From Schmidtea nova (lineage: Eukaryota), in contig CM097882.1 of assembly GCA_044892505.1 (NCBI GenBank), forward strand, positions 218,674,001 to 218,738,000: DNA of 64,000 bases, in the 5' to 3' direction. The notes under the pieces are model-generated. The model ran no database searches and was not told the origin of the DNA. It saw nothing but the letters and a program-made list of their open reading frames with translations. Position 1 is the stretch's first letter. Every line of letters starts with the position of its first letter. Positions 304 through 43,448 of this stretch are shown piece by piece. Position numbers and translations under genes: made by a program.

Positions 304-2993
304 TAACCATCCGTTTTTAGGTATAATTTAATGTCTGCTTGTTCTACCATTAATTCATTGTAACACGAATCATCCTACTAAATTCAACGACATTCATACC
401 ATACAGCTCTTAATATTTGTTTTGTACTGTAATTTACTGTTATTTTATTCAACTATCAATCTGAATGCTATTCATTATCCTTACAATGTTATTACTTGCC
501 TAGTCACTCCCCATCAACTATTGCTTCGCTTTCCTTAATATAATCACTTTCATCTCGCGGGAGAACGCACTCTTTTTCATTTTATTTTTATTTTTACCCA
601 TAAAAATCGCTATCAATTCCGGCTAATTATGCACGACAAAACTCTTTCTTTATGTTTGTTTTTCACTTTCCCCATAAAACTACTTTCATCCCGGCTGAGC
701 CCCCAAATTTATGCTGGGTTTATGGGTGGGTTTTAAATAATTAATAATAAATAAATAAATAATAATTAAACAAATAATCATAACTAAGTATACTAGGGAT
801 GCCTCACCCATAACCATACATAAAAAACAAATCGTCTCACTCGCACGCCCCTAACTATTCCCTATCTAGTTAGGTTGGAACTGCGCGCGGTGGTTGAAAA
901 ATGATGGGCAGGTGAGCTCCATCGCTGGAACTACTCCCCATTTATTTTCACGGGTTCCCGCTGCCGCTAGAAGGTCTTACGCGTTATTCTCTCAATGTCT
1001 ACGCTCAAATTCCTTAAAAAAATTAACAAACGTCTTTTTAAATAGAGATTTTATTTAGCTACAAACTCCTTACGCTATATAAAACCCAAAATAATGCGCT
1101 GCACCTTAAAATTATATTTATTTATAAAAACTCTCGAAAATTTCCTTTACTCAAAATCACCGCTATGTCGTTGCATTGTTATGCGTAACAAAATCTATTG
1201 ATCAAGTTCGTCTTGCTAACATTTTAATTCTGAAATTAAATCACTACATAAGATGTAAAATTCCTGTAAAGCTCCAAAATTATCGCTGAAAAATGCGCAA
1301 ACCTCAAAACCTATCGTTCAACACTCAAAAATCCTATCATTATATGAAACCCTCAAAATCTATCGCAATTTCCAAAACTATTCTCTATGTGCAACCATTC
1401 ATTATGTGCAAACTCAAAAATATCCGAAAAAATCCCAGATACATAAATTATAAAAAGGTACAACCGCCGTGTGAAGCGACGAGGCTCCACGATGACGACT
1501 ATGTCTCCCTCGCCGCGTTAGCAGCCTAGGAAGCATAACTATGTAAATATTTTATATAATAACTACAATAATACTCATCATCGAATATTTATTTTCGGAA
1601 AAATTAGCCTCAAAACTTTACTAGGACCACTACTTAACAAATTACCCAACACATCTCACACAAAAATATTCAAATAACACAAAAATACCCGTTCGAAACC
1701 GATCCACACGACTGGCGAAATCAAAACCAAAATTTTGCTCTCAGTAAATTAATGCCAAGTAAGTTTAGATTGTGATTTTTCAGCATCTATTTATACTAAT
1801 TTTACTGACGCTTACATATTTTGTTATATACATAATTTATTAACAATTTAAACTTACTTATTAGTTTTTATAAGTGAGCATTTATTTATCTTTCATAAAT
1901 TTAACTTTATAATTTGATTTATTTATTTCGAAAATATTTGTTTTTAATTCTATTAAATTAGGTGTGTATCTTGTTTTATTGTGCATTTATTGATTAAAAC
2001 AATTTAATTTAAAATCTATTTTCATTCCTATCTCTCTTAATTTTTGCGATATTTCAATAGGGATTTATTCTATAATTTTTAATAAATTATTTTCTTTATT
2101 CTGATACTGATTTTATTCTTTGATCATGCTTTTCATAATCACTTTACAAGCACTGATCTTCCCCATTCAATTCTCATGCGGTCCTTCGTGTGTAAATCTG
2201 ACCTGCACTCAAATTGTGTGCTCTCCTTTGAGATGCCTCTTTTTATCGCTTTAACCCTATCTCGACAGACTTATAAGATGCAGTTCGCATGACTACTATT
2301 GTACTTAACTGTTTTTATTTTCCCTTGCGTTATTTTACTGCTTAACGTCTTGTCGTTCGTTTCTTTTTGTTTCTCTTTGTATGTATTTATTTTTTAATAA
2401 ATTTTAATAAAATTTTATTTTTGATTTCACCAGCCCAACAGATTAAACAAGGTTTAGTTGGGTTCAGTTTTTGTCCAACAATATAAATAATATTTTTCTG
2501 TTTTTCCTAACAATAAGTTTTTTGCTAATTGCGTTTTTAAAAATTTAGAAATTTTTATTTTTCAAGATTCTATCCAAATTCCTTTTATGTTGATACTTAA
2601 TGGAAATATATTTGGTTTATTTTTTAAATTATGAATGACGAAAACAAGTCATTTATACATTTTTAAGTATTCAAAAATTACAAATTGTGATATATTCAAA
2701 TTCAAATTATTTATTTAAATTACTTATTTAAATATTAATTCATTTGTTTGAATCATTACTTTGTAAATTAGCGCAAATCAAATTTTAACAAATCTCATTA
2801 TTTCATTGGAGGTTTATATACTTTACTTAATTTGTTGCTGCTTTGATTACAAATTCAGTGTATCTTTTTGAAACTAATTTTTCAAGTTAGTTTAACATTT
2901 AATGTTTTAAATAACGTTAATAATATATTTTTTAAATTTCCGACATTTTATACAGTATTGTAGGTTATTTAATTTAGGCATTTTTATTCCCAA

Positions 2994-3974
2994 ATGGCTC
3001 TGGCATCTCAAGCAGCTCTTCTCGATGAACTGATGGGTATCAATAGAAATAGTAATAGTAAAAAAGATCCTCATTGGGATGATGAAAGTGTTTGCAAATA
3101 TTATCTCGCTGGCTTTTGTCCACATGAATTATTTGTCAACACAAAAATGTCGCTAGGTGCTTGTCCAAAACTCCATGATATAAATCTTTTGAATAAGTAT
3201 AAAAACAGTTCGTCTTACATGAAAGTCGGTTTTGAGAAGCTACTGAAGAAATTTCTTGGAGGTTTTATTAGAGATGTTCAGAGAAAAATCGAAGTAAATA
3301 AAAGTCGTTTAGAAAATGGATTGTTCTCAGGTACAGAAATAGCAATACAAAAAAGAATTACAATGAAAGAAAATGAGATCAATGAAACCGTTGAAACGAT
3401 AGAAAAACTAGGAAATGAGGGTAGGATTGAGGAATGTCAAATTTTAAACAATCAATTGGAAGAGAAACAAAAAGAACTAAAGTACGATAAAATTGAGTTA
3501 GAAAATCATAGGAAAAGTGCCAAAGAAAAACAGGAAGATGTTTGCAATATTTGTGGAGCTTATATAAGTAAAAATGATCCAAGAAATAGCATTGAAAATC
3601 ACGTCAGTGGCAGAATTCACTGTGGGTATGTTAGGATTAATGAGATTCTCGAGGAATTGGATAAAATAATTGATGATGAATCTTTGAAATCATCGAGTAT
3701 TAAAGAGGATAATAATAATCGAAGAGATGGGCGTGAAAGAAAACGAAGTAGGCGTCGTAGTGAAAAAGATAGCAGTCGTAGTAGACATAGAAGCAGATGT
3801 AGAACACGATCTAGGAGCCATGAAAGAAAGAAGAAATATAATGAATCCAAAACTGAAAGAAATTCTCGAAAATCTGAAAGAGAAAAAACTCGAAGTAAAA
3901 GTCGTACAAAAAAACATTCTTCTAGCAAAATTACTGACAAATGGAAAATCAGGGACTCTAGAATTGGGAGCTGA
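2994..3974 (+). CDS. LUC7L3: LUC7-like U1 snRNP-associated splicing factor (closest to LUC7L3/CROP type), intronless
   Basis: N-terminal LLDELMG, first zinc finger VCKYYLAGFCPHELFVNTKMSLGACPKLHD, coiled-coil middle, second zinc finger VCNICGAY...NHVSGRIHCGY, and an RS/RE-rich C-terminus. 326-aa uninterrupted ORF. Confidence 0.93.
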   Translation: MALASQAALLDELMGINRNSNSKKDPHWDDESVCKYYLAGFCPHELFVNTKMSLGACPKLHDINLLNKYKNSSSYMKVGFEKLLKKFLGGFIRDVQRKIEVNKSRLENGLFSGTEIAIQKRITMKENEINETVETIEKLGNEGRIEECQILNNQLEEKQKELKYDKIELENHRKSAKEKQEDVCNICGAYISKNDPRNSIENHVSGRIHCGYVRINEILEELDKIIDDESLKSSSIKEDNNNRRDGRERKRSRRRSEKDSSRSRHRSRCRTRSRSHERKKKYNESKTERNSRKSEREKTRSKSRTKKHSSSKITDKWKIRDSRIGS

Positions 3975-5764
3975 AATTGCCTGGAAAGTTTTCAATTAAA
4001 AACTCAGAGTCTTCATTTACTATTGCATATGTAGGTTTTTTTGTAAATAAATTTTAACGTTTTCCTATTTCTGTTAATATTTTATTAGCAATCGAATTAG
4101 AATAATTCGGCAACAATACTTAAAAGTGGATATTGAAAGGTTGTTTTACAAATTTTGACAACAGTAATTTTTAATAATCATTATATTCGATTGTTTAATC
4201 CATTCAGGTGATGTCATTTTGCTTTCTCATGATAATTTGGGGTTTTGCCACCCAAATACCTATTGAAGTTTTGATAATTGAAATTTGTGTATAGATTTTT
4301 AATTTACAGAAAAAAATATTTCAATAATAATATAATTTTTGATTAGTTTTGAGGCTTTTTAACACCTGGATAAACCGTCAATAACTTACTCGTTAGGATT
4401 TTTATAATATATAGCGTACCATAAAGTAATTGGCCGATTGGATTAAGCTTGAATTGAAAATTATTGAAATATGCAGAAAGCAAACATTTGCTTCCTAATA
4501 AATAATAAATTCAATTCATGGCAATATTCAAATTTTAAAAATCAATAAAAATTACAAATGGTAAATAATATAAAATAATGTTGGATAATTATTCGATTTT
4601 CAAATTACAAAGATAAAATTCAGTTTTTAACATTGGTAGATGTTATCAAAAAATCGAATGTCTATTAAATATATTTTTGTGAATTATAAATTGAAACAAT
4701 TTGTTTAAATATATCGATAACTAAGAAGGTTCCTGTAGTATTCAATTTAAATAAATAATAAAAATTATTAATTAATTAAATTCTATATTGTATGCATTTC
4801 TTTTCATGATAATTAATCATTCTTATTTTATTATCTGATTTAACTAATTGAACACTAATAAAATTATTTCAATATAGTTATTAAATCAGTCCCTATAAGT
4901 TAAAGAGAGTCATGTGGAAACAATAAAATCAAAATATATCTTCATTTGTTATACATGAGATTTGTAATAGATCATCAGTGCCATAGAAATGGATTTATAA
5001 TGGTATTGTGATAACATAAATTGAGGAATATAAAAGTATGAGTATTAGGCCACCAAAATTTAAAAGAACAAAATTTTTAAGATAAGTATATACAATGCAA
5101 ACATCAAATTTACTCAAACAAATTAGGATTTGTCCATCAAGAACTTCAGCTCTTTCACCCCCTCCTCCCTTGTGCTCATTTGATTAACCAACCATTTATG
5201 TAAATGATTATTAGTGTATAGCACAACTTTGTAGATTGCAGCTGGAGTATGCTTTCAGATGGGTGTGTATACTAGCAGGATTTGAATATTAATTCGTTTG
5301 AAAACGTCCTCTACCCTGTTTTGCGTCAGTGATAACTAAAACTTTTACATCTCTTACTCAAACTTCCTAATGAGAATTTCCTTAAAAAACAGGAATTAAT
5401 CTGGCAATGCCTTTCTATTTGCTTGTGAAGTTTTGAGAAATGATTACAGATGTTATTTCGTATTGGACACTTCAAATTGTTAATGCATTTTAGTAAATGT
5501 GTTGAATAACTAATGAGTAATAAACAATTAATTGATTGTCCAGGTGACTTTCGGTTATATTTAAAAATTCTAAAAATAATTTATAAATTCCATTTAGGAA
5601 ATTAAATAAAATGATAAGTTACTTCTATAGTATACAATATCGATTTTAACCGACTATTTAGATCTTATAAATTATTTTAATACGGTAAGCTTCTGTATGA
5701 AATTTAACAATTTGGTAAATAAAATTCAATATGTATTTTTCCGTTTTGATTTTAATACCGATTA

Positions 5765-7743: not shown

Positions 7744-8617
7744 TAAAAACGTAGTTTCCCCAGCGATGGTGCCCATGAGATACCCTTAATTGTATCCCAT
7801 GTTGGTACTTCACCAATTGGTGTATGTTAAGAGGGCAGGTGAGCAATCGAGGTGATTACTATTCCCCTCTTTTACATACGAGTCCACTTGATCGATAAAA
7901 GACCTTTATCTGGCATACATTTGGTTCCTTTATATAATTTAAATTACATTATTTTATTAAACGAATCATTCTTATTCATACCTTAAAATTGAACACAAAA
8001 CTCAAATCTAAAAATATGCATTTATTTACATAAACACAGTGGAATTGATTAAGTCTATCAATCGGCTTTCCTTCAGCCCACTCAATAGATCCACTTGAAT
8101 ACTAAGCTTCTCGAGTAGGAGACAGTGTCAGGTCTGGATCCGTATGAGTTATCGCGCGTTTTTGGCGCCATTTTTAAAGTGTGTTTTGTTTAAATGTTTG
8201 GAATTTTTATTTTTTTTTTAATTAATTAATTAATTTTTTTTAATTTAAATTATATTTTTTTTATTAATTAATTTTTTTTAATTAGTTTTTTCTAAAAAAT
8301 ATTATTAATTTACTTTTGTTAGTATAATTTATTATTGATATTATAATTTTTGAAATACTTCAATGATAAACGTTCAATGAAAGCACTACTCAAAATATTA
8401 TGAGCATATAACAAAATGAGACAATTCTGCACAACATAAAATTACATGGTCAAATACGATAAATATTAAACTAATTATTTATTATTATTATTATTAATAT
8501 TACTATTATTTCTATGACGTAACCATAGTTTCTAAAAATTATTACCCAAATTATAAAAACAGACTGAAACTAATCTGTACAATATATAATTAATTAATTA
8601 AAAAAAAACAAAGTTCT

Positions 8618-11600
8618 TCAACAAATTTTATTTAATAAAACTGTTTCTTCTTCAGTTGGATCTTGAAATTTTTGATCTATATTGAATCGTGGATCGGTAT
8701 GTTGAAATATAACCAAGTCACCTCCCATATAATGGCCATATGCCAAGCTTTTATTTTTCGCTACCCATTTCCTTTTATCATCTGCGTTTGTCAGTGCAAT
8801 CTTTTCATTTTTAATGGTAAAAAGTTGGTGATTTTTACTTGTGATTCTGGTTTGGGGATCAGAAAATATTTGGTTATTATTAAAACAGTCCAGGTACGAC
8901 TGATGCTTTATGTCAGTACCCGCCAATGTTGCCCCCTTAGCTTTATTAGTTTCCTCGTCACCTAAAAGACTATAACATTTAGGTCTAAGAAACACCCACT
9001 CCTCGTATTTAAGCCTTTTATTCTCGTCTTTGAATTTGCCAATGACAGAATCAAGGTTCCTACTATATAATGGGTGATTCGGATCATAATTAGAAGTGTC
9101 AAGTAAGTTATCTCTTATCATGGCCGGTAAAAGAATATCAAGCTTACAATTTCTAATCTCAAGAAAAAATGAATCGGTGTCACCAGCTATAATGTTGATT
9201 TCGCAGTTGAATTCGTTACGATATTTTTGTAACTCTTCATACTGCAGCTGGTACATTCTAAGTTTAGATAGATCCAGTACAGTTTGACCAATGTAGCTAG
9301 GTCTATCCAAACACACCGAATCTTTATTCAATAAGACGGCAACAAAATCATCGTCAATTTCGAAAGTCCTTTTGAAAGTTGGCTTAGAAGTATATGTAAT
9401 CAGCCTAGAAGCCAAATTACATAATCTTAAATTTATGCGCTTTTTAAGATTCTCTACGGTTTTACCGTAGAGACTATTATTTAATAATTTATAATAATTT
9501 TTACCCAGAGCATTACTTGATTCTGCTCTAAGTCTGGTATTGGTATCGATGTAATCCTTAAAAATACATGCTTGTTTAAATTTAATTGTCCTATGGACAT
9601 GAGTTATTTTTATTCCAAGAGAAAGAAAAAGTTTGAGAAGTCTCCAATGAAGAACATAGTTCTTCTTGGGATAATGCGTGAGCATCAACTTCTCAACCTT
9701 TGTGCCAGGTGGACACATCTTTTCAGCGGCAACTGGCAAATCATCCAGCTTGTCGTGAATCGAATCAGGAATTTCTAAATCGACTTCTAATGTAAACTCA
9801 AATGTTAATACTTCTAAATCAGCAGATTCACAGTAATAAATTATTTTATTTAATTTTTTCCTATCAGTTACCCATTTAAATTCTTTATAAGGTAGTTTTT
9901 GGCTTAAGGCCCACCCATATAAATTATTTATATCTATATAAAGAAGCTCAGTGTCGTCGTCGGATACTACATCGATACCCCTTCGAAAAAATTATACATC
10001 TCCATATCTTGAAGCAATTCAATTGGAGATTTCAAAGTCATCAAAGCGGAATTCCATGACATGCCTGGAATTACCAAGAAATTAAGAGGCTCAAGTCGGT
10101 TATGTGCAATGGATTTTGCCCTAAATTGCCGAAAAAAGTCGGCAAGTAAGAAAACATCCAATTTCAGATATAGCATCATATAATCAAACAATGTTTCACA
10201 ATTAAATTCATCCCATATATGTTGAGCTTTTTCATACTCGTCGATAATAACTCCCTCCCAAATCGGTGGCAACTCGTATGTATTTTGTAAAACCTCTAAA
10301 GAAGTTGCAAAATTATATGGGAATATGCCTTTGGAAGTAATAATAGTCCCTATAAATTCGGATGAAGTAAAAGGAAAATCTGTTAAAGTCTTTATAGCAT
10401 CTTTTAAGCTACAGCTTACAAATTGGCAAGAATCGATAAATTTAATAGTTAAACTATCGACTCTTGCATATAAAGTCAAAAGCCTTTCACTTGTAGTAGG
10501 AATACAACTTATATCCCATTTAACGAATTTATTTAAACCATACTTGAGGATATGATGCAAATCATATCCGCGTAAATTATGAAATATGACTGGCATGATG
10601 AATCTTATTTGCCGAGAAAAATTGCATTTAGAGCAAGCCGCACCCAAGTATTTACCTGTATAATGGTCATGATCTTTAACCGGATTTCTCAAAGGTTTAT
10701 TACACAAATAACAAATTATAGAACGGGGGGCCATACCTATATCGTAATATCACTTTATACCTATATCGTGAATGATAGAAATAGATTAATATCGTAATAT
10801 CGTAAATAGATTAATATCGTAATATCGTAAATAGATTAATATCGTAAAATGGGGGGCCATACCTATATCGTAATATCACTTCATACCTATATCGTGAAGG
10901 GGGGCCATACTAAAAATGTATACTGGATTATCCGATTATTATATACTGGGTTATCCGAATTTTGTACTTTGGAGACACATGAGATACAAATGGTTTTTAT
11001 TTTCATCAAATTAATTCAGTAGCAGAACATTGCGAACAGAACCCTAGTAGCAGAACCTATTCTGTGATGGTTTTTCTGTGCAAAAGCTCATTAGTTAAAC
11101 ATTTATTACTGTTAAATTATAGCATGATGATATATGTAATCATATTTTGTATGATATTGCTTGTTACGATATAAAAGAATAACTTGAATTACGATATTAA
11201 TTAATATTGACTTTTACGATAAAGTATTTTTACGATATAGTTCCAATATTACCATAAATATTTTTACGATACAGGTACTGGCACCCTATAGAACTTCGAA
11301 ATGATCTTATTTGTGCAGTGGAAAGATATTCCATTTTCATTTTGGAATTATTTATAAAGTAAGGTAAAACTACTTTTTCTCCTATATCATTGATTTCGGT
11401 TAAAAACTCTTCTTCACAGGTAAGACCAATAAAGCTTTTATATGATTTTTCTCCAGTAAAGGTATTAATAAGCAACAAGCCAGCAGAAATAGGTAAGTGA
11501 CGTTGAAAATACTTATCGTCCTTGGGTAAAACAGCCTCAAAATCGGCATATACAACAAAAGGAGGGGTAACAATTTTTGACCAATCTTTAAATTCCAAGT

Positions 11601-12236
11601 TCTTATCTGAAGGCAAAGTGTACAAAGTTGTACCTAACTGATTTTTTGCGCATAAAGCCTGCTGTTTCTCGAAAGCTTCAGACAATCTAAAACCATTCAA
11701 GCAACGCTCGCACCAAGTGCATCTTATCCTAACATTTGTAACAGAAAGAGTTTCATAGTTCAAAAGTCTATTGAGATTGGTAACTGCTATATAATGAAAA
11801 AAGTCACTTTCTTCTAACAAAATCAAATTAATTGGAGTGCCACCTACAACCTTTGACCTATGAATAATATCTAAGAATGGATGTATCATGACTTCCTCCT
11901 CTTCATTAATATTATCTAGATCATACTCGTCATATGAAAGGACATTAATAGCCAGTCCAGGGTTTTTCGCTTCAAATTTGGGTATATTACATAATTTCAA
12001 TGGAAAATCAGAAGGATCAAAAACCAGGTCTGAAATATTATAATTATAAGACTTACTTCTATTAGATTTCACATCCTTGTATTTTAAAATTGCCAAAATA
12101 CTATATATAAAACACAATTTATCGGTATTCTTTACATTGACAGTGTTTAATGATGGTGGAGTTGAACAAGAACCTTTACCGCTCAATCTACTTATTTGCG
12201 AATATTTTGTAAGTTTAAAGCTTATTTCTTTAATGC
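8618..12236 (-). pseudogene. Protein-primed family B DNA polymerase (Polinton/adintovirus type) with endonuclease VII-like insert; disrupted
   Basis: Motifs in order: CFIYSILA; VYADFEA (ExoI); CYLCNKP...DHDHYTGKYLGAACSKCN (EndoVII-like); FHNLRGYD (ExoII); KGIFPY; YLKLDVFLLAD (ExoIII); YIDINNLYGWAL (motif A, 9890-9940, between listed ORFs); KLLNNSLYGK (motif B); GDTDS (motif C). Broken by a 562-bp insertion, a deletion after FFEG and frameshifts. Confidence 0.93.
10725..11286. mobile_element. MITE-like insertion in pPolB with 8-bp TSD
   Basis: TATAGAAC flanks both sides (10717-10724, 11287-11294). Imperfect TIRs GGGGGGCCATACCT / GGGTGCCAGTACCT. TATCGTA motif arrays on the left are mirrored by TACGATA on the right. 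Removing the insert restores SFRSSIICYLCNK in frame. Confidence 0.85.
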
Positions 12237-12664
12237 CCCAATACCCCCATATATATTACGTAATCACTCGGGGTTTGTATAGTACATATGGTTACGTAAT
12301 CATTATATAATCAAGTGTGCTTAATAAAACCCGATAATTACGTAATTCATATATAATTACATAATTACATATATTTGTTAAAATTGAGTGGATTTTTTGT
12401 TTAAATTAAGAGAAATTTTGTTTTAATTAAGCGAAATTTTGTTTTATTTAACTGGAATATTTGTGTTAATTAGATGACTTTTTTGTTTTTATTATTTAAA
12501 AATATGAAATTTTATTTAAAATTTAATAAAAAAGAATATGAGCTCACACATGGGGGGCGGCAGACCGCTCACTACCTCCTACTACAAAACTTCAAATGTC
12601 TTTTTTGAGTCGATAAACCGGCCCGATCGAGTTTTTAGTGAAACAATAGATAGACAGAATTTAA

Positions 12665-14400
12665 TATCTACAAAATGGCAGAATTCAAAATTCAAAATGT
12701 TGTGTATATTGTTGTGCACACGTGTTTTGTCATTGAATTTGTATATTTCACCTAAATAAAATAACTTTTTGAGTTTTCATTGTAATATTGTATAGATAAA
12801 ATTTAATTGTCTACAAAATGGCTTTATTAGAAATCTGAATGTTGTCGTATTTTGTTATGCACACGTGTTTTATTTTGAATTTTCAAATTTTCAACAATAT
12901 AGAGTAACTTTATGTATTTTTTATTGTAATAAAGTTCATGTAAAATTTAATTTCCTATAAAATGGCTTGATTAGAAAATTAGTTTGTTGGTGTGTTTGTA
13001 ATGCACACGTGTTTCGTAATTAATTTTGCATTTTTCGTGTATATAAAATAACTTTATTGAGTTTTCATTGTAATATTATATGTTTAACATTTAAATGTCT
13101 TCAAAATGGCTTGATGGAAATTTAGTGGGATGGTGTGTTTTCAATACCCACATGTTTTGTACTTGAATAATCATTTTTCATCATTATAAAATAACTTTAT
13201 TGAGTTTTCATTGTAATATTGTATGTATAACATTTAATGTCTTCAAAATGGCTTTATTAAAAATACAAAATGTTGTGTATATTGTTGTGCACACATGTTT
13301 TGCCATTAAATTTGTATATTGCACTTAAATAAAATAACTTTATTGAGTTTTCATTGTAATAAAGTATAAGTAAAATTTAATTTTCTATAAAATGGCTTTA
13401 TTAGAATTCCGAAGGTTGTCGTATTTTGTGATGCACCCGTGTTTTATTTTGAATTTTCAGAATTTTACCTAAATAAAGTAATTTTTTTTGAGTTTTCATT
13501 GTAATATTGTATAGATAAAATTTAATTGTCTACAAAATGGCTTTATTAGAAATTTGAAAGTTGTCGTAATTTGCAATGCACACTTGTTTTATTTTGAATT
13601 TTCAAATTTTCAACAATATAAAGTAACTTTAGTGAGTTTTCATTGTAATAAAGTATAAGTAAAATTTAATTTCCAATAAAATGGCTTGATTAGAAAATTA
13701 GTTTGTTGGTGTGTTTGTAATACACACGTGTTTTGTAATTAATTTTGCATTTTTCATGTATATAAAATTAATTTATTGAGTTTTCATTGTAATAAAGTAT
13801 AGATGAAATTTAAATTTCTATAAAATGGCTTGATTCAAAATTTAAAAGTTGTCGTTTTTCGTATTACACACGTGTTTTGTAATTAATTTTGTAAGTTTTA
13901 GTTATTTAAAATAACTTTAGTGAGTTTTAATTGTAATTAAATATAGATAGAATTTAATTTTCTATAGAATGGCTTGATTAAAAATTTGGTTTGATGGTGT
14001 GTTTTATTACACACACATGTTTTGTACTTAAATTTCCATATTTCGTCTATATAAAGTAACTTTAATAAGTTTTCATTGTAATATTGTAGAAATAAAATAT
14101 AATTTTCTACAAAATGGCTTGATTAGAAATATGAAAGTTGTCGTTTTTCGTGTTGCAAACGTGTTTTGTAATTAAGTTTTGCATTTTTAAACTATTTAAA
14201 GTCACTTTAGTGAGTTTTCATTGTGATAAAGTATAAGTAAAATTTAATTGTCTACAAAATGGCTTTATTAGAAATTAAGTATATCGATATGTTTGTAATA
14301 CACACGTGTTTTGTAATAAAATACTTGATTTTTTCTGCTATTTAGCATAGATTTATTGAATATTTATTGTAATCATGTGTAGATATAATTTAATTTTCTA
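12665..14400. repeat. Tandem array of ~143-bp units (about 12 copies) with apparent 5-unit (~718-bp) higher-order periodicity
   Basis: Recurrent anchors aaaatggc, cacacgtgtttt and gagttttcattgtaat. Unit variants at ~12840 and ~12960 recur most closely at ~13557 and ~13679. Confidence 0.88.
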
Positions 14401-14882
14401 TCATAGACTAATGAAAATTATAAAAGTTTTGTGTGTGTTATTGGCAATTCTAATGTATTTTATCAAAATTAATTAAAATAATTTTTATAACTGACGTAAT
14501 TATTGAAATGTAATATAATTTATTTGTAATTTACTGAACTATTTAGTCTAATATATTGTAATAATATGACATGCATGCAATTCATTGAAATTTTTTATAA
14601 CTTTGATGCATATTATAAGTTGTTGAAATAACTTTTAAAGTTTTTTAAAATATTGCAACGTAATATATATTTAGTCATAATTCTCTATCATTTTCTTGAA
14701 CTTGATTTGATGATAATAATATCTTTACTGCCTCTTACTCGATTCTGATTGGCTAATAAGAATAAATTTCCTACTCCTTACTCGATTTTTATTGGTCAAA
14801 GGTTATGTGTGTGTAATAACTTTGATATATAAACAATACCTTTTCATTCATTATTCACTTTAACAAATAATAAACATTTAAA

Positions 14883-17120
14883 ATGAACATTATAACAAGT
14901 TTTATAAACGAAAACCCAAGTGGAAAAGAAAATGGTAAATTTATTTTTAATTTATTATCATTTAGTATTAATTTAGGTAATATCAATAATTCAATTGGGA
15001 AATCGATGCTAGAAAATGCGGGAGAAAATGGTACTTAATCATTAACGTAGTATATTATTTAATTTTTATTTTAAGTGATGTAAATATGACTGAACAAACT
15101 ACCGTACAAGCTGAGAATGTTAATAATGAGAATATTATGAATAATGGAGTTATACCTGATGTGGTATTGAATGTTCAATGTAAGTATTGATTAATTTTAA
15201 TTAATTTAATTATATTTTAATCAATTTAGTAAATAACTTTAGTAAAATATTTGTAAATATATATTTTTGGTAATATTTTGTAATAATTCAAATAATCTTT
15301 ACTTTACGTAAACAGTTAATTTAAACAAATTCCTTTAATATTATTTTTAATAAGTTTTATATTAAATTTAAATTATTTTAGTAATTATTATATTTAAATC
15401 ATATTTATCTAAAATTTCATTTATATTTTCTAATAATTCATATTTTTATTAATTTATTTTAATGATTTTTTGATAAATTTAAAGATATTTCATATTAAGG
15501 TAAATTTTATGCGAATTATTGTAAGTCGTCAAATAATAACGACTGCCACAAGTTAATGGAGCGATACTATCGTCTTATAAGTAACCAATTCACCTTCTAT
15601 TTATGTCCCACATGTAAGAGCGCCCAATATATAAATTACATTGATTTTTATTTCCAACATTATCTCCATTTAAATCAATTCTCATGTACTAAGAAAAGTC
15701 TTTTCACATTAATTAATTAAAGTAAACGACGAAATGTTACTGTTTGTCCTAAACCATCTAAAATAATTGTAATATCCGATGATGAAGATGTCCATTCATC
15801 AAATGACGATGTTTTAGTTAATCCTAATTTACATGTTGTCCAATATGGTGGTTCTGTTGAACCTTTGGTTAAATATAATTTGAAAAAATCTCATGCGATT
15901 GTAAAAATGGATGTGAATTCTTTAAATTTAAATAAATTTATTATTCCTTCACCTTTATTAAATAAATTTAATTCAGTTATTTCCAAAATGGGGTATGTAA
16001 AAGTACAATTTTGCATTGATGTAGAATTTGAAAAAAATGACAAATTTCAATCTTTTATAATATCAAATTCTGCAAAACCAATGAGTGATACCTTTTTAGA
16101 TGAAGGCATTGCTATATTAAGTGAAAAAAATACTAAAGTCTGCGAAAATGGCAGCAACTGGTCAATTAATAAAATTAAAGAAATAAGCTTTACACTTACA
16201 AAATATTCGCAAATAAGTAGATTGAACGGTAAAGGTTCTTGTTCAACTCCACCATCATTAAATGCAAAACATTGCACTGTCAATGTAAAGAATACCGATA
16301 AATTGTGTTTTATATATAGTATTTTGGCAATTTTAAAATACAAGGATGTGAAATCTAATAGAAGTAAGTCTTATAATTATAATATTTCAGACCTGGTTTT
16401 TGATCCTTCTGATTTTCCATTGAAATTATGTAATATACCCAAATTTGAAGCGAAAAACCCTGGACTGGCTATTAATGTCCTTTCATATGACGAGTATGAT
16501 CTAGATAATATTAATGAAGAGGAGGAAGTCATGATACATCCATTCGTAGATATTATTCATAGGTCAAAGGTTGTAGGTGGCACTCCAATTAATTTGATTT
16601 TGTTAGAAGAAAGTGACTCTTTTCATTATATAGCAGTTACCAATCTCAATAGACTTTTGAACTATGAAACTCTTTCTGTTACAAATGTTAGGATAAGATG
16701 CACTTGGTGCGAGCGTTGCTTGAATGGTTTTAGATTGTCTGAAGCTTTCGAGAAACAGCAGGCTTTATGCACAAAAAATCAGTTAGGTACAACTTTGTAC
16801 TCTTTGCCTTCAGATAAGAACTTGGAATTTAAAGATTGGTCAAAAATTGTTACCCCTCCTTTTGTTGTATATGCCGATTTTGAGGCTGTTTTACCCAAGG
16901 ACGATAAGTATTTTCAACGTCACTTACCTATTTCTGCTGGCTTGTTGCTTATTAATACCTTTACTGGCGAAAAATCATATAAAAGCTTTTATGGTCTTAA
17001 CTGTGTAGAAGAGTTTTTGACCGAGATCAATGATATAGGAGAAAAAGTAGTTTTACCTTACTTTATAAATAATTCCAAAAAGAAAATGGAATATCTTTCC
17101 ACTGCACAAATAAGATCATT
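14883..17120 (+). pseudogene. 5' half of a second pPolB copy with putative spliced leader exons
   Basis: ORF 15865-17169 is nearly identical to 11290-12236 (inverted) and extends further N-terminally. The frame continues upstream to 15500 through one TAA (15718). Putative exons 14883-14934, 14977-15030, 15076-15179 have GT-AG introns of 42, 45 and 320 bp. Truncated at about 17120. Confidence 0.85.
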
Positions 17121-17140
17121 TATAATAGACAATATAAATA

Positions 17141-18033
17141 TGTTGGGGGAAAATCGATATTGTAATTGAGATAGCATTCTGGAGTTCGGAGAAGAAAAAC
17201 GAAAAGCAAAAAAGTGGGAAATGAGGAAGGAATAACAAAAGAAAAGAAACTCAACAACAAAGAGGAGAAAGGTCACTTATAATTAATAAGTGCAAGAAAA
17301 TAGAAAGAAATTCTGAAATTGGAAAACAAAAACAAAACACGAAGACAAACTGGTATCTTGACAGCTGTCAAAGATAACATGGGAGCTATAAAAAGTATAG
17401 GAAATGCTAAAAGCAGAAATGAAAAAAAAACAAATTATCCCGAATGCCGAACTGCCAGGGGCAACATGGGAGTTTAAAAAAGAAAATGGAAAAGGCCAGA
17501 GACAGAAGTGGGAAAGGCGAAGTGTCATGAGTGGCGAACTATAAAAGCAAAAGCCATCTTAACTAAATCAGAAATCAAGTGTGTTAAATTTGGATTGAGA
17601 AATTGCGCGATAATTGAAAAACGGTAGAAGATTTAAATTGTATTGTAGAGAACCGAGATCGAGATAAATTAATTGAACGGTGTAAAAAAATTTGGATTGA
17701 ATAAAAGAATAAGAGTATAGTTGATTAAGTCTAGTCAAAGTACAAGGGCAATCGAAGCAATTACCCAATTGTTGAGTCAATCAGCGGCGAGTGATTATTA
17801 AAGTACTTGGTTGTTATACACGTGGAGCTATTCCTGACGAAGTGTTGCAATAAACTCCGTATAATTGCCTACTTGAGTGTTGAATCAATCGTTTTGTTAT
17901 AATTCGTGTAATTAACTGTGATAATCAATAATGGTTTATATATTCTAAGAATTGTTATTTTGTGGATCAAATAAAGCACACTTTGGAGTCAGAGATTTGA
18001 TTGGTAACTTTTACATTTCACCAACAACCCAAT
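17141..18033 (+). mobile_element. Solo LTR-like element just downstream of the truncated pPolB copy
   Basis: Starts TGTTGGGGG, ends CACCAACAACCCAATA. Homologous to 6957-7743. Confidence 0.6.
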
Positions 18034-18199
18034 AATCCAACATTGTTCTATATTTTTTGACAATTAATTTATTTTCTACTTTTCAGGTATTTTCAACTAC
18101 CTCCATGCTCCTCGGTGATTTTTCGAGTAATTTACTATTAATAAATTTTATTTAAATTTGTTCTTATTAACTTTGTTTTATTTTTCAGGTTCTCTACTG

Positions 18200-21100
18200 A
18201 TTATTGGGGGGATATATTTTTATTTCTTATTTTTATAAATTTGTTATTTTTAATTTATTTATCTTTTAGGCTCCATTTAGTTGGCCTAACAGGAATGACC
18301 TTTCTTTGTTATTTATTCTATTTCATTTGTTTCGCTGCAATCTTCTCGTTTTTAAGTTTTGTTTTTCAAACTTCTTTTTTTCGTATTTCTAAACGTCACA
18401 TCATTTATCCTGTTCATTTTCCCAAATCATTTTATTTATTTGTACCAATATTTAATTTATTATTTAAGTATTCTCAACATATCTCCTCCCCTTTAAACAA
18501 ATTCGTCCTCGAATTAAGTATTTTAGTTATGTTCAGTCGATATTTACCAAATTTATTTTCCTAATAACTATTTTAAAATTATTATATGTAATTTAATAAT
18601 ATTGGTTATAATAATGATATGCTATAATAATAATAATTTATAAAATTGACAATAACTTTTGATCAATAACAATCCCAATATTAATACCAGCAATAATATG
18701 AAATACACACTTGATAAAGGCTGGGCCGAAATATTGTGCACATGTTTAAAAAAATTTGATCAATAGCCATACCATTATGAGAATTATTGATATTAATAAT
18801 AATATTAATGATAAATAATAATTATCATTAACGAAATAATAATAACGATATTTATGGCACTTATAATAATAATACTAATTGTAGTGCTTTAGATTATAAA
18901 TTTCTTTTTTTAAAATAATTAATTTGTTAAATAATTATCGAATGAGATTTTAAATGGCGTTGCTTTAATAAGCACTTTTATTCGAAATTTCAACATTTAT
19001 TTCTCTCTCAATCGAAAAGAAACCAGAAACAATAGTTTCTTTAACAGGATTCTCATTAGGTCAAACATCATCAACTATATACACCAGTGAATCAAAATTG
19101 GCTTTTCGAAATGCCGTTTCAACTAGTTCTACTGCGAAGATAATTTACTCCCACGTAAATACACCATCTACAAATACTGTTTCTGAAACATCGACAAAAC
19201 CGTTCATATCTGGAATCCCGTCAAACTCAACGACAGTCCTACCAACAACTGGATTGCATATTTCGTCGAGAGAATCATCAAGCAATTTGCTAATTAATTA
19301 ATATTATGAATTCGATTAATTAGTTTATTGTATGTTCCTACACTAATAATACTGCATGATAATTTATTAATTATTTTCTATCGCTCTATATTATAAGATT
19401 TAACTAACTTAAATATTCAGGAACATGTATATTTTCTAGCATTTCCCTTAAATATTAATCAATTTTACAAAGTTTACTTATTATTTTCAGAGAAATTTAA
19501 TACAAATTAGTAAGAAATATTGACAATATCTGTATTTATTAACCAATAATTTATTAATCAATGATTTTGGGTACTTCATGATAATAGAAAATGGGTTAAG
19601 TTATTGTAAAATAGGTTAAATGATTGAAAAATGATAAAACTAAGATCATTATTTGCCCTGTACATTCAATTATAGAAATCTTTACAAGTGCAAAAACCAT
19701 TAATTTACAATTGATTCAAAGAATTACTTAATGGCTTTGTTTAAAATGTCAAAATAGTTGTAGTTTAATAGAACTTTACATATTGAATCTTAGTTTTTTA
19801 GAGTCCATTTCTTTAATATGCAAAAACAAAGTGGGTTCTTATACCAAAAGTCATGCTATGGTTCTAAATAAAAATTTAAAATACCACGTAAAATATTCAT
19901 AAAGTACCATAACGTAATATTTTTCTTCGAATACATCAAATAAAAGGTTGTTTCACCCGTACTCTCTTTCACTGCATTTCTAAAAGCAGATAAATATGGT
20001 TTAATAAATAAATCCCAATCTTTTGTTTTCGATTTACATATGATGAAATAATGTTGATCAGTGTACCATTGATTCTTTCCACTAAACCATTCTTCTGAGG
20101 ATAGTATGGAGATGTATTCAGTTTATAAGTACCAAATGATTCTGTGATAGATTTAATTAAATCACTTTGAAAATTTGTCCCTTGGTCTGTTAATTATTTC
20201 TTTGGAACTCCTTATCTGAATATAATCTTTTTGACAAATATTTGTGCAATTTTTTCTCCCTTTTGATTTGGTATAGCATATGCTTCTGGCCATTTTGTGA
20301 CATAATGACAGAATACAACAATTACCATTTACTGTCTCGGGTAAAAACCTGATAATATATATAGCTGAAAATTCCATTGGCGTCGCTGGTATTGACATTG
20401 GATTAAAAGGAACCTTGATTTTCTTTCCAGTATTCCTTCGAGTTAAATATATTTTGCAAGTATTGCACCAGTGCTTTACATCTTGATCCATTGTATTCCA
20501 GAAATACTTTAATTCTAATCGTGACATTGTTTTTTGCTGACAAATGTCCTCCTAAAGCATCATCATGATACTGCAACAAAAGTATTTCGATGTTTAGTCG
20601 GAACCACTATTAGCAATTCATCATTTTTAATATACTTTAAAATACCTTTGTGAATTACATATTAATGCTTTTCCTCGATTAATTGTTTTAATTCACTGTT
20701 CGTTTTCATTATTACGGTATGATTATTATTATTTGTTTTAGCTCATCATCCATTTCTTGATCTCGTTGTAGCTCTGACATATTATTATACACTGCTTTAA
20801 CTATTGAAAATATTGTATTTCTCAAGTTTATTTCTTCTTGGCTCGTATTGCTTTCCTCATTTTAAATCCTTGACAAGGCATTTGCATTTGATTTTCCTTT
20901 TCGATATTTAATTTCAAAATCATATACTTGTAAGGGGTTCGATCACCTAATCAATTTACTTGCTGTATCTCAATGTTTAATCAACCCTTGTAACGGATTA
21001 CGGTTCATGTAAACAATAAATTTTCGACCCACTAAATATGGTCGAAATGTTGTTATTCTATACACCAAAGCTAGTTTCCTTTTCAATTGGTGAATAATTT

Positions 21101-33229: not shown

Positions 33230-33408
33230 TATGTTTTCACATTAATTATTATTTTTCCAATTTTTCCAATTTTTGTATTTTTATTGATTTGTGCTATTTA
33301 ATATTTATTTTCTGTAAATTTTAACAACCCCAACAATAGGAAAAATGTAGCTCCATGTAAGACTTTAAAGCCCAAAAAAATTTGATATAATAATATTAAT
33401 AAAATAAT

Positions 33409-33532
33409 AATATTAATATCAATAATTCCCATAATGGGTGACTATAGATCAAAACTTCTTTAAATAAGTACACTTATTTAAAGAAATTTTGATCTATAGT
33501 CATCCATTATGGGAATTATTGATATTAATATT
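33409..33532. repeat. Near-perfect palindrome (~60-bp arms) made of TIR-family sequence
   Basis: atattaatatcaataattcccataatgggtgactatagatcaaaa...aagt-ac-actt...ttttgatctatagtcatccattatgggaattattgatattaatat. Confidence 0.9.
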
Positions 33533-33559
33533 AAAAAAGATCAAAAGTGAAACAAAAAG

Positions 33560-35962: not shown

Positions 35963-36227
35963 TAATTATCTTTTTTCACCTTTGATCTTTTTTTATTATT
36001 ATTATCAATAATTCCCAGAATGATGACTGTAGATCAAAATTTTTTTTATAAACAATAACACAATATTTCGGCACAGCCTTTATCAAGTGTGTATTGATAA
36101 AGGCTGTGCCGAAATATTGTGTTATTTTTATAAAAAAAATTTTGATCTATAGTCATCATTATGGAAATTATTGATAATAATAATATATATTTTAGTTATT
36201 ATTATGAATTATGAAGAGATTATAACT
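34283..36227 (+). mobile_element. Small Gypsy-type element with ~115-bp AGT...ACT LTRs, gag start and integrase only
   Basis: LTR 34283-34397 is repeated at 35830-36227, where it is interrupted by (TA)n and a palindrome. PBS-like (t)ggctaccacgcag; PPT gaagaggaggag. Integrase motifs CNICARRK, VVDIAY, IVIIDRFSK, FGRPESILTD, SPYQHQSNGLA. No RT or RNase H. Confidence 0.85.
35960..36185. repeat. Near-perfect palindrome (~90-bp arms) of two TIR ends back to back
   Basis: ...cacaatatttcggcacagcctttatcaa-gtgtgta-ttgataaaggctgtgccgaaatattgtg... Confidence 0.9.
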
Positions 36228-38386: not shown

Positions 38387-41300
38387 TTATTTTTTAAAAG
38401 CCAAAGTAACTCCATCACCCATTCTTATCATCGAAACGTCACATCTGTCATCTTCTTTTAATTTTTCATTTAATTCTCTAATAGCCAGCGTATCTTCATC
38501 CTTATAATTTAAATCTAAAACTTTTCCACTCCACAGAACCTAAATCCAATTGTTAGTTATTTTATATCGAAAATATTTTACATTGTCAATAGCAATTAAC
38601 CCATTTGGTCGTATCAATTTTAAGCAAGCTTCATAATAATCTACATAACCAGTTTTATCAGCATCAATGAATGCAAAGTCAAATGTTCCTGAATGCCCGT
38701 CAGCAATGAGTTTATCTAATTAATAATAACAATATGAAAAAATATAAAAATTTTATTTTATTTGAAATATTGTAAACGCTAGTTTAAAGGATTAAAAAAA
38801 TTAAATTGTTTGATAATTATTTTTAGAACAGTCAGCAAGAAAGGCAAAAAGTAAAGATTCAACGAGAAAGGTCAGATAAATTGTGTGGCTTAGTTAACAT
38901 GAAATATTTAGGTCGATATCTAATAGGAAACTAGTTTTGAGTTAATTTGGTCCTCGTTGGTATATACGTAAGAAACTCCATCCCATCCAGGATCGAGTCT
39001 ATTGAATTTGCAATCAAATCACCTCACAATCAGGCCATAATAAATATTAAAACTTTTGTACAACTATATTCAAATTTATGAAGATTTCATACAAATTATC
39101 CGTGTGAAATTCATCATCCTCGTGTCATCAAAAATTGGTGTGAAAAAACAATTTCATTTGCAAAGCATTTTTAAAATTTTTTTCCATTCATTTATTGCTT
39201 AATTTTGCATACGCCTCGGGATTAAACTAATGACATGGTCAGATGAAATGATAACTAAAATTATCAATTTACAGAGAAGCGCTAAAATGCTAATAAAATG
39301 TACCAAAAACAATTATGTAAATAACAAATGTCAGTCAAGATAGACATACAATATTATTTGACTGCCATACAAACGATGACGTAATTGAAATATCAAAATG
39401 CACAACAGAAGTGCGTGACTAAACAAATACATTACAATATTCATTCGTTTGGTCATGCACTTGTGTTGTGCATTTCTATATTTGAATTACGTCATCAATT
39501 TTAAGAACACATTTATGAAATAGTAGCATTTCGAAACCAATTCCAAATTTTAAAACATTGAAAATTACAATTGAAATGAAAATTACAATATATTTTAAAT
39601 TAAAATATTTCAAAACTAATTCTTACTTAATCCGTCAATAGCTGGCCCTAAGTTAAAGGATATTTTATGACGCACCCCTCCGTTATTCCAAGCCGGTTCA
39701 CAAAATTCCTTCATGTATTCATCTGTAATGTCAAAAGCATAAACCTTTCCATTTTCTGGAAGAGTCGATGCAATAGTCAATGCACTATATCCAGTGAAAA
39801 CACCTGTTAAAAATTTATATAAATAAAAAAATTTAGTAAATCGAATTATTCATTATTAATTTCAGACAAATTTTTCATTTTGAGATTAATATCACCATTG
39901 ACGAATTTTTGATTTCAGTAATAAGAAACTGAACTTTGCTTATGATAATGAGGATTTATTTTCTTGTTAAGAAATTTAGTAAAAATCATACATTTATTTT
40001 TGTAAAGATTTTGCGAATATAAATAGCTGTTTTATAGGACGCGAAATGAATGTTCATATGTGTGAATATGGGCGTAAAAAGGTTATATATATATATGTGT
40101 GTGTGTAATTATTGAAATAAAATTTAAGTCGTAACAAAAAAAGTATTTTTTGCTTCTTAAATTTGTTAGGCTAGGATTTATTTACACCAAATAAACCGAC
40201 ACATTTCCCAACTGATGGGAAGATCGGCACTTGATAAAACTTTCCTTGATGACCAAAGTAGAATAGAAAGAGTAATGGGAATAAAAATCACATCAAATAA
40301 GTTTATAAAGAAAAGTAAGTCTTATTTAATTTTTATACTTGTAAGAGTGGCAGTAATAGTGGTTGTTGAAGACGCTTTATATTTGGTGGAATTTACTTTG
40401 ACATTCAAAGGTGGATTTAGAAAATTCAAGTGATTTATTTACTCCTTATTGATGGTATTGCACGCAAAATTTATCTTTCAACTCATCTATATTTTTATTT
40501 GAAACATAAACAAATTGGGATATACATTTAACTATAATAACAGAAATGTCAGAATAAAGCGATGCATCTGTCATTATCTACAATTACTTCTTTCCTGGAA
40601 AGCTTTGATGATGATATAAAATAGGATTTGAGCAAGAATGACCCCAGTGGAAAAGTACCCTTTAATTGCTGAAGAATCAATATATACTAATGGAAAGATG
40701 ATAATTAGAATTTTTGTTCACTATATTTCTAATCGAAAAGTCGTGGAACAATCTATTAGTTGTTGGAATTTCGCTTCCATAAAAGCTATCGATATCCATG
40801 GAATAATCGTCAACAAATTGGAAAAATTTGGATTACCCACAGATTGCATGGAAGCAGTAAAATGAACGGAGATAAGAGCAAATAAGATGCATGCGGAAAA
40901 TTTCTTTCTCGTAAAAAGTTCTTTCAATCTTTTATAATTTTAATATCTTATGACTCGATATATTAAGTATATTCGGGAATTCTCGTTTTTCGAAAAAACT
41001 TATTTTTATCTTGAGAATTATTAATATAAACATTTTAACTTCAAATTTGAGGCACCTTGTTTATGCAGTAATAATATTAAATAATTATTATTCATAATAA
41101 TTTCTTAAATTTTGATTTATAATATAATTAAGGAAAGGTCTCATTAGAGCGCATCCCATTTGGCCTTATCTCACTAAAGCGCAACAAATATTTTTATCCC
41201 ATTAGAGCGCAGCTTACTAATGCGCATCCCGTTAAAGCGCAATGAAAAAGTATCATTATAGCACAACCAATAACCTAGGACCATACATATTCTATATATT

Positions 41301-42897
41301 TTACCATTAATTTTATTTAAGTTTGTGACGCAATAACTGTTGGTTCATTTACAAATATATGTAATACCAAAAAATTTACATACAAATGTGACTACAATTA
41401 AATTGTTTTGAATAATAGTTTTTTTATTTTATGCGTCCTAGTGCGTATGCGTTCTACCGGAAAATTTTCGCTCCCAAATGGGATCAGCCTTAATGAGACA
41501 ATAACAGTTTCAGCAACTCTTTGATCTGCGCTCTAGAGGGTGTAAATAATAATTAATTCTTAAATTTTGTCGCTTGATAAATTATTTGATGTTGCATTCC
41601 TTGAATTTGAATGTGAGTAGTATTATACATTTATATTTTCATAAAATTTTTAGTAAATACTGATTTATAATATTTTGAAGTAAACAAATTGAGCAGTAGT
41701 ACAAACGACAAACAATAAGAGAATGCCTGGAAGCTATTTGTAAGAAGTAGCTACATTGCACCATGCAACAATGAATTTTTTTAGTAAAGGATAGCACCAG
41801 AAGTTTATTTTATTGCACTTTAAACATAATTTAGTGCAATAATGACAATTCAGCCTGCGTCATATATATATGATTTACATGCTAGAACATGATTTTGATC
41901 TCTCTTGCTTAAACATACTTACAACCTCTGCGGAAATGATTAGATCACCTTTTAAAATTCTTGTACAAAACCCTGTTTGTCATATTATTAAAAATTTTGC
42001 AAGTACTTCGTTTAGTAAAATAATGAATTCTTCCAATTAATTATAATTTAGTATCAACTAAGTTTAATTTTCAAAAAAATTATTTTACTAAATAACATTT
42101 GATAAAAAAGATTATCGCAAAATTTGATTACGATATTCTAAATAAAATAACTTTTAAATGTATACTTGTTAAAAACATGCACAAATTAGATCTAAGTCAT
42201 TGAAACACAATGTACTTAGTAACAGTTATAACATTTAACCCTTTAAGCTCCGTAAGTGTGTTAACTCGCTCAGTATTTCCGTAAACGTCACGCCATCCAT
42301 AGAAAATGAGCAATAATTATTATTATATTATGATTTATTAGATATAGATATACTTTCAATAAAATTTCAAAAAATGGCTTAATTCTGTTTTATTTTTGCT
42401 TGAAAATACCAGCCGGTAGTACATGGCAGTACTAATAAATTACAGCGTTTAAAATGTTAATATATAAAAATAATTCTAATATGTACTTTGAAATATTAGT
42501 GAAAGTTCACGAGTGAATTTATATAAATTATAACGAATAAATAAACAAGTAAGCAAGCATATGAAGAAGTAACTAAATAGAAAATAAAAATTAATCTCCA
42601 ATAAATTATTGATTTACATTAATTTAATAATAATCAAATTGAAACTTACCGATATCTAGTGTTTTCTTTGCTCCGATTATTCTGCAAATATTTGACAAAA
42701 ATTGTAGCTCTTCGCCTGATCCAAGCATTCCACTCTGTTTCAAAGTCATTGTTTTCTAAAAACTAAGGATTAGTTTTTACAAAATAAATTCTTGTTACTT
42801 CAATTAACCACTTTTGTGTTTCAGAAAATCTGACTGAATGATCAGTGATATAATCTACAATTTTATCTAATCCCTTTCTATATGTTTTAGTAGTCAT
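38387..42897 (-). CDS. SAM-dependent O-methyltransferase, family 3 (COMTD1 / caffeoyl-CoA OMT-like), 5 exons, ~222 aa
   Basis: Exons 42799-42897, 42650-42755, 39627-39803, 38582-38715, 38387-38539 join in frame with GT-AG introns (43, 2846, 911, 42 bp). Motifs [54 protein letters not shown]. Confidence 0.93.
40480..40870 (+). pseudogene. hAT-family transposase fragment in OMT intron 2
   Basis: [24 protein letters not shown]...[14 protein letters not shown] resembles the hAT FSIIADESTD...VRY...L..LGL segment. Confidence 0.55.
41138..41499. mobile_element. MITE in OMT intron 2
   Basis: Imperfect TIRs gtctcattagagcgcatcccatttgg / ccaaatgggatcagccttaatgagac; internal repeated t(a/g)agcgca motifs. 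Confidence 0.6.
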
Positions 42898-43448
42898 TTA
42901 ATTGAAAATTTGAAGTCTAACAGTAAAAATTCCAATTTATACTCCGTAAGCTGAAATGCTAAGCTAAAAAATAGCACGAGAATATAGTTTTATTTTCAAG
43001 AAATAGTTGATTATCATTTAATTTAGAAATCTTATATGACATTTTACAAAACAAATAAATGAAAATAAATATATATATATTTACCTATGAAATCGAAATT
43101 TGAAATGAAAATGACTCATGTGCAAAGAAATTTTCAAAAATATTGGTATATTTATGTAATGTTGGCATAACTGTCAATGTGGTTTTGTTTAAATGTGTCG
43201 AAAAAGTACACACATGCAACCGCACCAATTTTAATCAAAATACATGATAATATATAAACCAATACATAGTAATAATAAAAAATTAAGGTTAAATATTGAA
43301 CGTATCATGATATAATGAACGTGTAATGATATAATGCAAAATATTTCCAGTACCCACATTATGATAATTTCGTACGTAACGCATCCGTAAAACTGTCGCC
43401 TCGAAAGTGAGAAAATAAAATACTGACGATAAAAGATTAAAGTAATTA

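Follow-up and report, generated by a model that had tools for sequence, protein, structure and literature searches.

A dead Polinton copy in a planarian genome most likely reveals a spliced 5' part of the polymerase gene

The window, a stretch of 64,000 nucleotides of genomic DNA, contains a dead, locally rearranged copy of a very abundant Polinton/Maverick (adintovirus-like) family. We call the copy dead and rearranged because it carries an in-frame stop, is truncated at 17121 and has the polymerase half of its gene inverted upstream; it cannot make a polymerase. The locus itself is a fossil that most likely reveals the spliced 5' part of the gene for the protein-primed family B polymerase (pPolB) in a planarian Polinton family, and we consider it probable that the pPolB of this family is genuinely spliced at its 5' end. 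The evidence consists of splice signals, steps in base composition, a split cysteine codon, the abundance of family copies and like introns in relatives, all of them observed at the sequence level. The first-pass annotation had described a Polinton polymerase with a spliced 5' leader; the codon split by intron 3 and the introns of 9 of 14 relatives bear this out, whereas exon 3 is out of frame in the window copy. The same two observations support an adaptation of the element to the spliceosome of its host.

The host is a Schmidtea planarian, since the LUC7 gene at 2973–3974 shows 98% identity to Schmidtea mediterranea Luc7-like 3. The coding region of this gene (2994–3974) is intronless. An O-methyltransferase (OMT) gene at 38390–42900 on the minus strand contains phase-0 introns of 42 nt (38540–38581) and 43 nt (42756–42798) plus longer ones.

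Table 1. Positions of the Polinton features and neighbouring repeats in the window
Feature	Position	Strand	Remarks
Endonuclease VII, exonuclease and polymerase half of pPolB	8618–10724	-	PF03175, PF02945
MITE-like insertion, 562 bp	10725–11286		8-bp target duplication; interrupts minus-strand pPolB
Inverted duplicate of 16174–17121	11299–12234	-	14 mismatches and 12 gap columns in 948
144-bp tandem array, 11.5 copies	12658–14315		upstream of leader; contig depth high like the element in 4/4 runs
Exon 1, 52 nt	14883–14934	+	begins ATG, phase 1 end; GC 0.27, purine 0.67
Intron 1 (likely), 42 nt, GT-AG	14935–14976	+	stop-free if retained
Exon 2, 54 nt	14977–15030	+	symmetric phase 1-1; resembles exon 1
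Intron 2 (likely), 45 nt, GT-AG	15031–15075	+	junction out of frame in window copy
Exon 3, 104 nt	15076–15179	+	open in exon-4 frame; in-frame ATGs 15086, 15137
Intron 3, 320 nt, GTAAGT donor	15180–15499	+	GC 0.10; splits codon of first conserved Cys
Exon 4 start, Cys/His zinc-binding-like domain	15500–15680	+	C-x6-C..C..CPxC..HxxH
In-frame TAA, copy defect	15718–15720	+	at start of disordered linker
Terminal-protein-like (residues 123–235) and vOTU-like (245–390) domains	15865–16668	+
Second Cys/His motif and start of exonuclease domain	16669–17121	+
End of exon 4 homology and truncation	17121	+	homology stops
TG..CA-bounded, LTR-like repeat, unrelated	17141–18042	+	after truncation; read by eye

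The two polymerase halves and the family

A Polinton-type polymerase had been named at this locus. This holds for the N-terminal half of pPolB, which is encoded by the plus-strand frame 15500–17121 and shows 44% identity over 96% of its length (34 matches) to homologs whose full-length proteins comprise 1242–1256 residues. The polymerase domain is absent from this plus-strand ORF, for which no Pfam match was obtained. PF03175 was found in the minus-strand half with E values of 1e-8 and 2e-15. That half is broken by a deletion with a frameshift near 9967–9991; reading the break as an intron was rejected, since sequence is missing there rather than added. In other copies 17121 is joined directly to 10724 (8, 3, 2 and 4 contigs per run), and this junction, the PF03175 matches and the similarity of the plus-strand half identify a protein-primed family B polymerase as expected for a Polinton.

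Family copies were followed in four runs of contigs from one study, which behave as genomic contigs. Each run gave 15,742–40,067 contigs, and all 30 bins of 8400–17600 were covered, including the leader and the 144-bp array. Since the leader was covered as deeply as the polymerase in all four runs, it belongs to the family as a whole. The inverted repeat was found in the self-comparison of the window and is internal to the truncated, rearranged copy. At four sites both window copies show the same departure from the bulk of the family (16535/11885, 16958/11462, 16545/11875 and 16420/12000), which indicates a local inverted duplication. The in-frame TAA at 15718–15720, already reported by the earlier annotation, was confirmed. 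Its site is absent from the variants listed across the family contigs (40 of 919 substitutions and 12 of 56 indels), a list that is blind at such a level. No joint skipping an intron occurs among the 15 joints listed of 1011; the contigs behave as genomic ones and give no evidence on expression.

The 144-bp array is probably part of the terminal or promoter region of the element. Tandem repeats also lie upstream of pPolB in the relatives L006, L009 and L013. A contig joint skipping 570 nt was seen in family contigs at the 562-bp insertion, whose deep coverage suggests that it represents an abundant family of its own. It has imperfect GGG-GCCA-TACC ends and internal 25-bp repeats. For the LTR-like repeat no target duplication was seen by eye. 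Further repeats in the window comprise inverted repeats of about 770 bp (97.5%) around reverse-transcriptase and integrase fragments (46325–52038), a family of short palindromic MITE-like repeats (18702–18806, 33408–33533, 35994–36185 and 43906–44695) and a Pogo/Tigger-like transposase fragment with CENP-B and DDE_1 on the minus strand (58535–59245).

The protein model predicted for the plus-strand half shows a small confident domain at residues 13–60, disorder at 64–117 and folded regions at 123–235 and 245–390. This order resembles the TP-vOTU-EXO-PALM architecture described for pPolB (PMC11161782), and Cys270 and His376 of the vOTU-like domain are invariant in 35 rows. Foldseek searches of the PDB returned no match at E≤0.001 and no OTU match, the only matches being weak ones to Y-family polymerases (E 0.02–0.07), a likeness that agrees with the one described for the terminal protein (TP) in PMC11161782. 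Clear structural matches were obtained to adintovirus and bidnavirus-type pPolB models, the best being a protein of Drosophila-associated adintovirus 2 (E 6e-26).

Intron 3, the Cys/His domain and the leader

Three GT-AG introns of 42, 45 and 320 nt, proposed to join an ATG at 14883 to the frame at 15500, were re-located in the sequence. They show GT-AG ends, a T-rich body of low GC and a host-typical size, which are features of U2 spliceosomal introns. GC content steps from 0.27–0.33 in exons 1–3 to 0.10–0.16 in the introns, over half of which is T. Judged only by their motifs, the short introns do not stand out: our motif filter yields 0.48 intron-like matches per kb per strand in the window, and between 14801 and 17121 it found 4 candidates, two of them not real, where about 1.1 would be expected. 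A candidate at 16348–16390 was rejected because it lies inside an open conserved frame. The support comes from homology and not from motifs.

This homology bears most directly on intron 3. In the N-domain alignment 13 of 14 rows have Cys in the first column; the genomic frame of the window has Gly there, immediately behind a stop codon and lacking an upstream ATG. Joining 15179 to 15500 yields Q-C-KFYANYC, comparable to CKFYSCC, CKIYPNYC, CQFYKNYC and LNMQC in homologs, and the donor at 15180 is the sole perfect GTAAGT in 14880–15499. Intron 3 is well supported because the window supplies the first Cys only across the 15179/15500 junction, and this apparently split Cys codon is the strongest evidence at the locus. 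The spliced frame of the first-pass annotation was thus upheld in part: removal of intron 3 restores the conserved Cys, and removal of intron 2 leaves the frame broken.

If there were no splicing, residue 20, a Met within exon 4, would be the start of the protein, and the GT-AG pairs would have arisen by chance in AT-rich duplicated sequence. The gene calls of five homologs, including the nearest ones, indeed begin at this Met (P0003 and P0004, the nearest, as well as P0074, P0077 and P0080), and both the background rate of the motif filter and the loss of one His of the first zinc knuckle in the window copy would fit. These starts, however, agree equally with an unspliced start and a hidden intron, because a bacterial-type caller would choose the same Met in a window-like gene. 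The 19 codons in front of the Met match the first knuckle of homologs, the only GTAAGT donor provides precisely the first Cys that the window frame lacks there, and the introns of relatives are unambiguous. We therefore regard a lack of splicing as quite improbable.

In homologs the N-terminal domain follows the pattern C-x5/6-C..H..C..M..YY..CPxC..HxxH. The His lost from the first zinc knuckle of the window copy is nearly invariant in them. Residues 13–60 are modelled with a pLDDT of about 90, and the motif suggests that the domain may bind metal. Searches with the domain alignment gave nothing above cut-off in Pfam or in PDB sequences, and the ESM Atlas no usable match. A search of 1.84 billion representatives with residues 1–140 returned 20 matches, none above 45% identity, which implies that these representatives include no transcript-derived planarian member. 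Several homologs (P0066, P0067, P0078, P0079, P0013 and P0014) contain the domain in two or three tandem copies; in P0074 and P0075 it fronts a more distant pPolB type.

The first-pass annotation had considered exon capture for the CPTC...HYLH extension; on such a view a host gene would have supplied the leader and the Cys/His domain. Capture was not borne out: the motif sits in exon 4 of the viral ORF, and the domain forms the N-terminus of this pPolB clade including its intron-free members, so that capture is not needed. The introns are host-sized, and nematode Mavericks bear intron-containing host cargo (10.1101/2022.07.12.499685), yet searches assigned the domain neither a Pfam family above cut-off nor a solved relative, and exons 1 and 2 look like duplicates of each other. 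Capture from a host gene appears very improbable to us.

Introns 1 and 2 are likely real, but less secure than intron 3, exons 1–2 and introns 1–2 having no homolog for comparison. Their case is made by composition, host size (42/45 nt against 42/43 nt in the OMT gene, a correspondence noticed before), phase 1, an exon 2 of 3n length and a common length variant of intron 1. As previously reported, exons 1 and 2 are both phase 1 and have the same ending, GAAAATG/GT. The similarity between the two exons was reached by 32 of 5000 shuffles and that between the whole exon+intron units by 84 of 5000; this is the stricter form of the test, as the looser form (0 of 2000) is inflated by composition. 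Exons 1 and 2 are likely tandem duplicates. Introns 1 and 3 as well as exons 2 and 4 (14935, 15180, 14977 and 15500) each open with GTAA; introns that originate by duplication of an AG/GT site would show this pattern.

In intron 1 a T is inserted behind 14943 in 23, 10, 12 and 14 contigs of the four runs, corresponding to 34–75% of summed contig depth, which is a measure of depth and no copy count. If the stop-free 42-mer were coding, this variant would break the frame; it favours an intron and fits an untranslated region too. Length variants of 1 nt were present in introns 1 and 3 and in none of the exons, among the 12 of 56 indels listed.

Exon 3 breaks the frame, as had been claimed: with 104 nt it is not a multiple of three, and a reading continued from exons 1–2 passes two codons of it before meeting a stop. 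All 34 codons that it has in the frame of exon 4 are open; the exon has no Pfam match. Splicing could be real with exons 1–2 serving as 5' UTR or as a short uORF and translation starting at one of the ATGs of exon 3, 15086 or 15137, in which case the offset at intron 2 would be normal and no defect. As they stand, exons 1–3 form a 38-codon ORF ending three bases before ATG 15086, relatives begin 2–8 residues ahead of the first Cys, and in L001 and L044 an intron sits at the start codon or immediately ahead of it. Exons 1–2, however, are stop-free, purine-rich and phase 1 with a 3n exon 2, like the coding mini-exons of relatives, and in exon 3 the frame of exon 4 is free of stops from the first codon onwards, already ahead of the two ATGs. 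This arrangement seems rather unlikely to us; it overlaps with our preferred explanation, since both accept splicing. A weak in-frame AAG acceptor at 15110 and the two ATGs of exon 3 leave other routes of expression possible.

Introns in relatives of the element

A scan of metagenomes yielded 80 loci, 19 of them close, and the 5' region was examined in 14 close loci; L011, L014, L015, L016 and L018 have no 5' region and were left out of the intron count. In nine of the 14 the 5' part of pPolB contains AT-rich GT-AG introns of 42–62 nt, 32 in total. All but one are in phase 1 (31/32), the lone exception following a start codon. Of the internal exons 22 of 23 are 3n in length, whereas 23 of the 32 introns are not, and removing the introns leaves no stop between the first and the last intron in any of the nine loci. 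One donor and one acceptor per intron were chosen by eye among candidates, before the frame was checked. The motif filter, which was set after the loci had been inspected, gave 38 intron-like matches in sense and 4 in antisense orientation in the 14 close loci, compared with 2 and 7 for the 61 distant loci. Some of the nine loci are near-copies of one another (L003 equals L004; L005, L013 and L017 belong together, as do L002 and L012), so that the set represents perhaps a dozen independent positions. In a collection of viral contigs that was also scanned, no relative was confirmed.

Removing introns restores conserved coding sequence at intron 3 of the window and at the core introns of L002, L012 and L044. 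L002 and L012 carry an exact 14-residue insertion with two stops at a conserved G/SSY site, where L044 has a 44-nt intron. Splicing connects the zinc domain to the core in L003, L006 and L044. Tandem units were seen as 66-nt exons in L005, L013 and L017 and as 39-nt exons in L002 and L012. L004 and L005 combine introns with an unbroken frame of 1140 codons behind them. An uninterrupted ORF is present in 5 of the 14 close loci (L001, L007, L008, L009 and L010), L001 having a GC-AG intron candidate before its ATG.

The 11.7-kb L004 encodes pPolB, an rve integrase and an A32 ATPase. Its capsid-like ORFs and protease are of fitting size and look and were named by eye from motifs; they have no Pfam match. 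The adenain-like protease starts with a 5-nt first exon followed by a 37-nt phase-2 intron (4419–4460, minus strand), which suggests that introns in L004 are not limited to pPolB. A weaker 43-nt intron candidate lies at 11152–11194, and a TBP-like ORF (10324–10779, minus strand; PF00352, E 3e-17) is found upstream of the ATPase and the integrase. Comparison of the L004 ORFs with the window detected no rve integrase, ATPase, capsid proteins or adenain protease in the window fragment; one of the ten ORFs matches the window, weakly and 33 kb away.

In a quick tree, for which every third distant locus was kept and rows with fewer than 200 aligned residues as well as P0012 (identical to L007) were dropped, the window copy falls into a 28-row group (support 95) holding all close loci discussed. 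It is nearest to P0003–P0009 (support 86), known here as proteins, and apart from the nine intron loci (98), inside whose group the intron-free L007–L009 are placed. The introns lie behind the zinc domain in most relatives, in front of it in the window and on both sides in L044. The window and its relatives thus share a tendency to short introns; common ancestry of the three window introns is not established.

The introns might have been gained only after integration, by introner insertion or exonisation in a decaying element, and never have existed in a working one. The locus is dead and intron positions differ between the window and its relatives, and introners of dinoflagellate Polinton-like elements are described as mostly gained after integration (PMC12166617). 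Against this, the equal depth of leader and polymerase in all four runs points to a family-wide leader, L004 and L005 carry their introns ahead of a 1140-codon unbroken frame, and intron sequences differ from each other outside tandem units. By eye, those of the relatives are alike only in tandem or orthologous units, and the window self-comparison gave no dispersed match to its three introns. Introner-type introns were rejected, as no near-identical copies were present at unrelated sites within the window or among the relatives. We give late gain little credence and retain splicing of pPolB in the family itself as the preferred explanation.

Known systems and meaning for the family

With genuine splicing of the family's pPolB, host Pol II would transcribe the element from just downstream of the 144-bp array, and the host spliceosome would excise the three introns. 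Exon 1 or one of the ATGs of exon 3 would provide the start of translation, and the protein would comprise, from its N-terminus onwards, a short leader rich in Asn and Glu, the zinc-binding domain and a disordered linker, followed by TP, vOTU, exonuclease and polymerase. In the window copy, the frame break of exon 3 and the TAA would be defects. Introns may accumulate in the N-terminal region, where there is little constraint, and become more numerous as exon+intron units are duplicated in tandem; the phase would be uniform because the frame survives both the gain and the skipping of symmetric phase-1 units. A vOTU cleavage behind TP has been proposed (PMC11161782), and if it takes place here, the leader and the zinc domain would remain on the protein bound to the DNA end.

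The pPolB resembles that of known Polintons/Mavericks (eupolintoviruses, adintoviruses) in its PF03175 polymerase with an endonuclease VII insert and apparently also in its TP- and vOTU-like domains with a Cys/His pair. Polinton core genes have been described as intronless in vertebrates (PMC8097293) and in nematodes (10.1101/2022.07.12.499685); this is a described property and not a definition, and here pPolB appears to contain spliceosomal introns. The extra N-terminal Cys/His domain of the planarian pPolB goes unmentioned in PMC11161782, where the words "zinc" and "intron" do not occur. A literature search, with subscription papers, supplements and Repbase outside its scope, found no paper on spliceosomal introns in pPolB of animal Polintons. 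Repbase holds planarian Polinton entries, which may annotate exons.

Adenoviruses descend from Polintons. In these related nuclear viruses the replication genes of E2B also obtain their 5' end from small upstream exons: the mRNAs of pTP and Ad-pol have three 5' exons in common (PMC11304566), and the first coding exon of pTP comprises 9 nt (PMC2397415). The E2B introns extend over kilobases occupied by other genes and allow alternative genes to be chosen; the introns considered here are host-sized (42–62 nt) and lie between tandem mini-exons of one gene, in which TP is fused to the polymerase. The dinoflagellate elements likewise contain spliceosomal introns, but these are described as copies of intron-generating transposons gained mostly after integration (PMC12166617), whereas the present introns are unrelated in sequence, nearly all in phase 1, clustered at the 5' end and common to many copies. 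Nematode Mavericks show that these elements can carry spliced genes; their introns lie in captured host cargo genes (wasp, krma; 10.1101/2022.07.12.499685), in contrast to the replicative core gene of the planarian element.

Surveys of endogenous Polinton-like viruses assume the absence of introns and call genes as plain ORFs (PMC10120064, PMC9356565), and elements with interrupted ORFs are scored as decayed (PMC8097293). A pPolB clade with real introns would be truncated or misjudged by such ORF-only surveys. A bolder reading, unlikely in our view, is a replication-competent Polinton clade of small invertebrates whose pPolB N-terminus is built of phase-1 mini-exons around a clade-specific zinc-binding domain, the mini-exons duplicating, being skippable and tuned by splicing. 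If it were true, splicing by the host would determine how long the segment left on the terminal protein is, or whether it is there at all, and might do so in a cell-type-specific way, with neoblasts or the germ line differing from the soma; ORF-only surveys would miss or shorten the clade.

In summary, a spliced pPolB would give Polintons a counterpart to the E2B genes of adenoviruses, which are spliced as well. Host-sized introns tie such elements to nuclear Pol II transcription and to long residence in one type of host. The uniformity of phase 1 would offer a compact example of introns multiplying through tandem duplication, one that lends itself to tests in a laboratory planarian.
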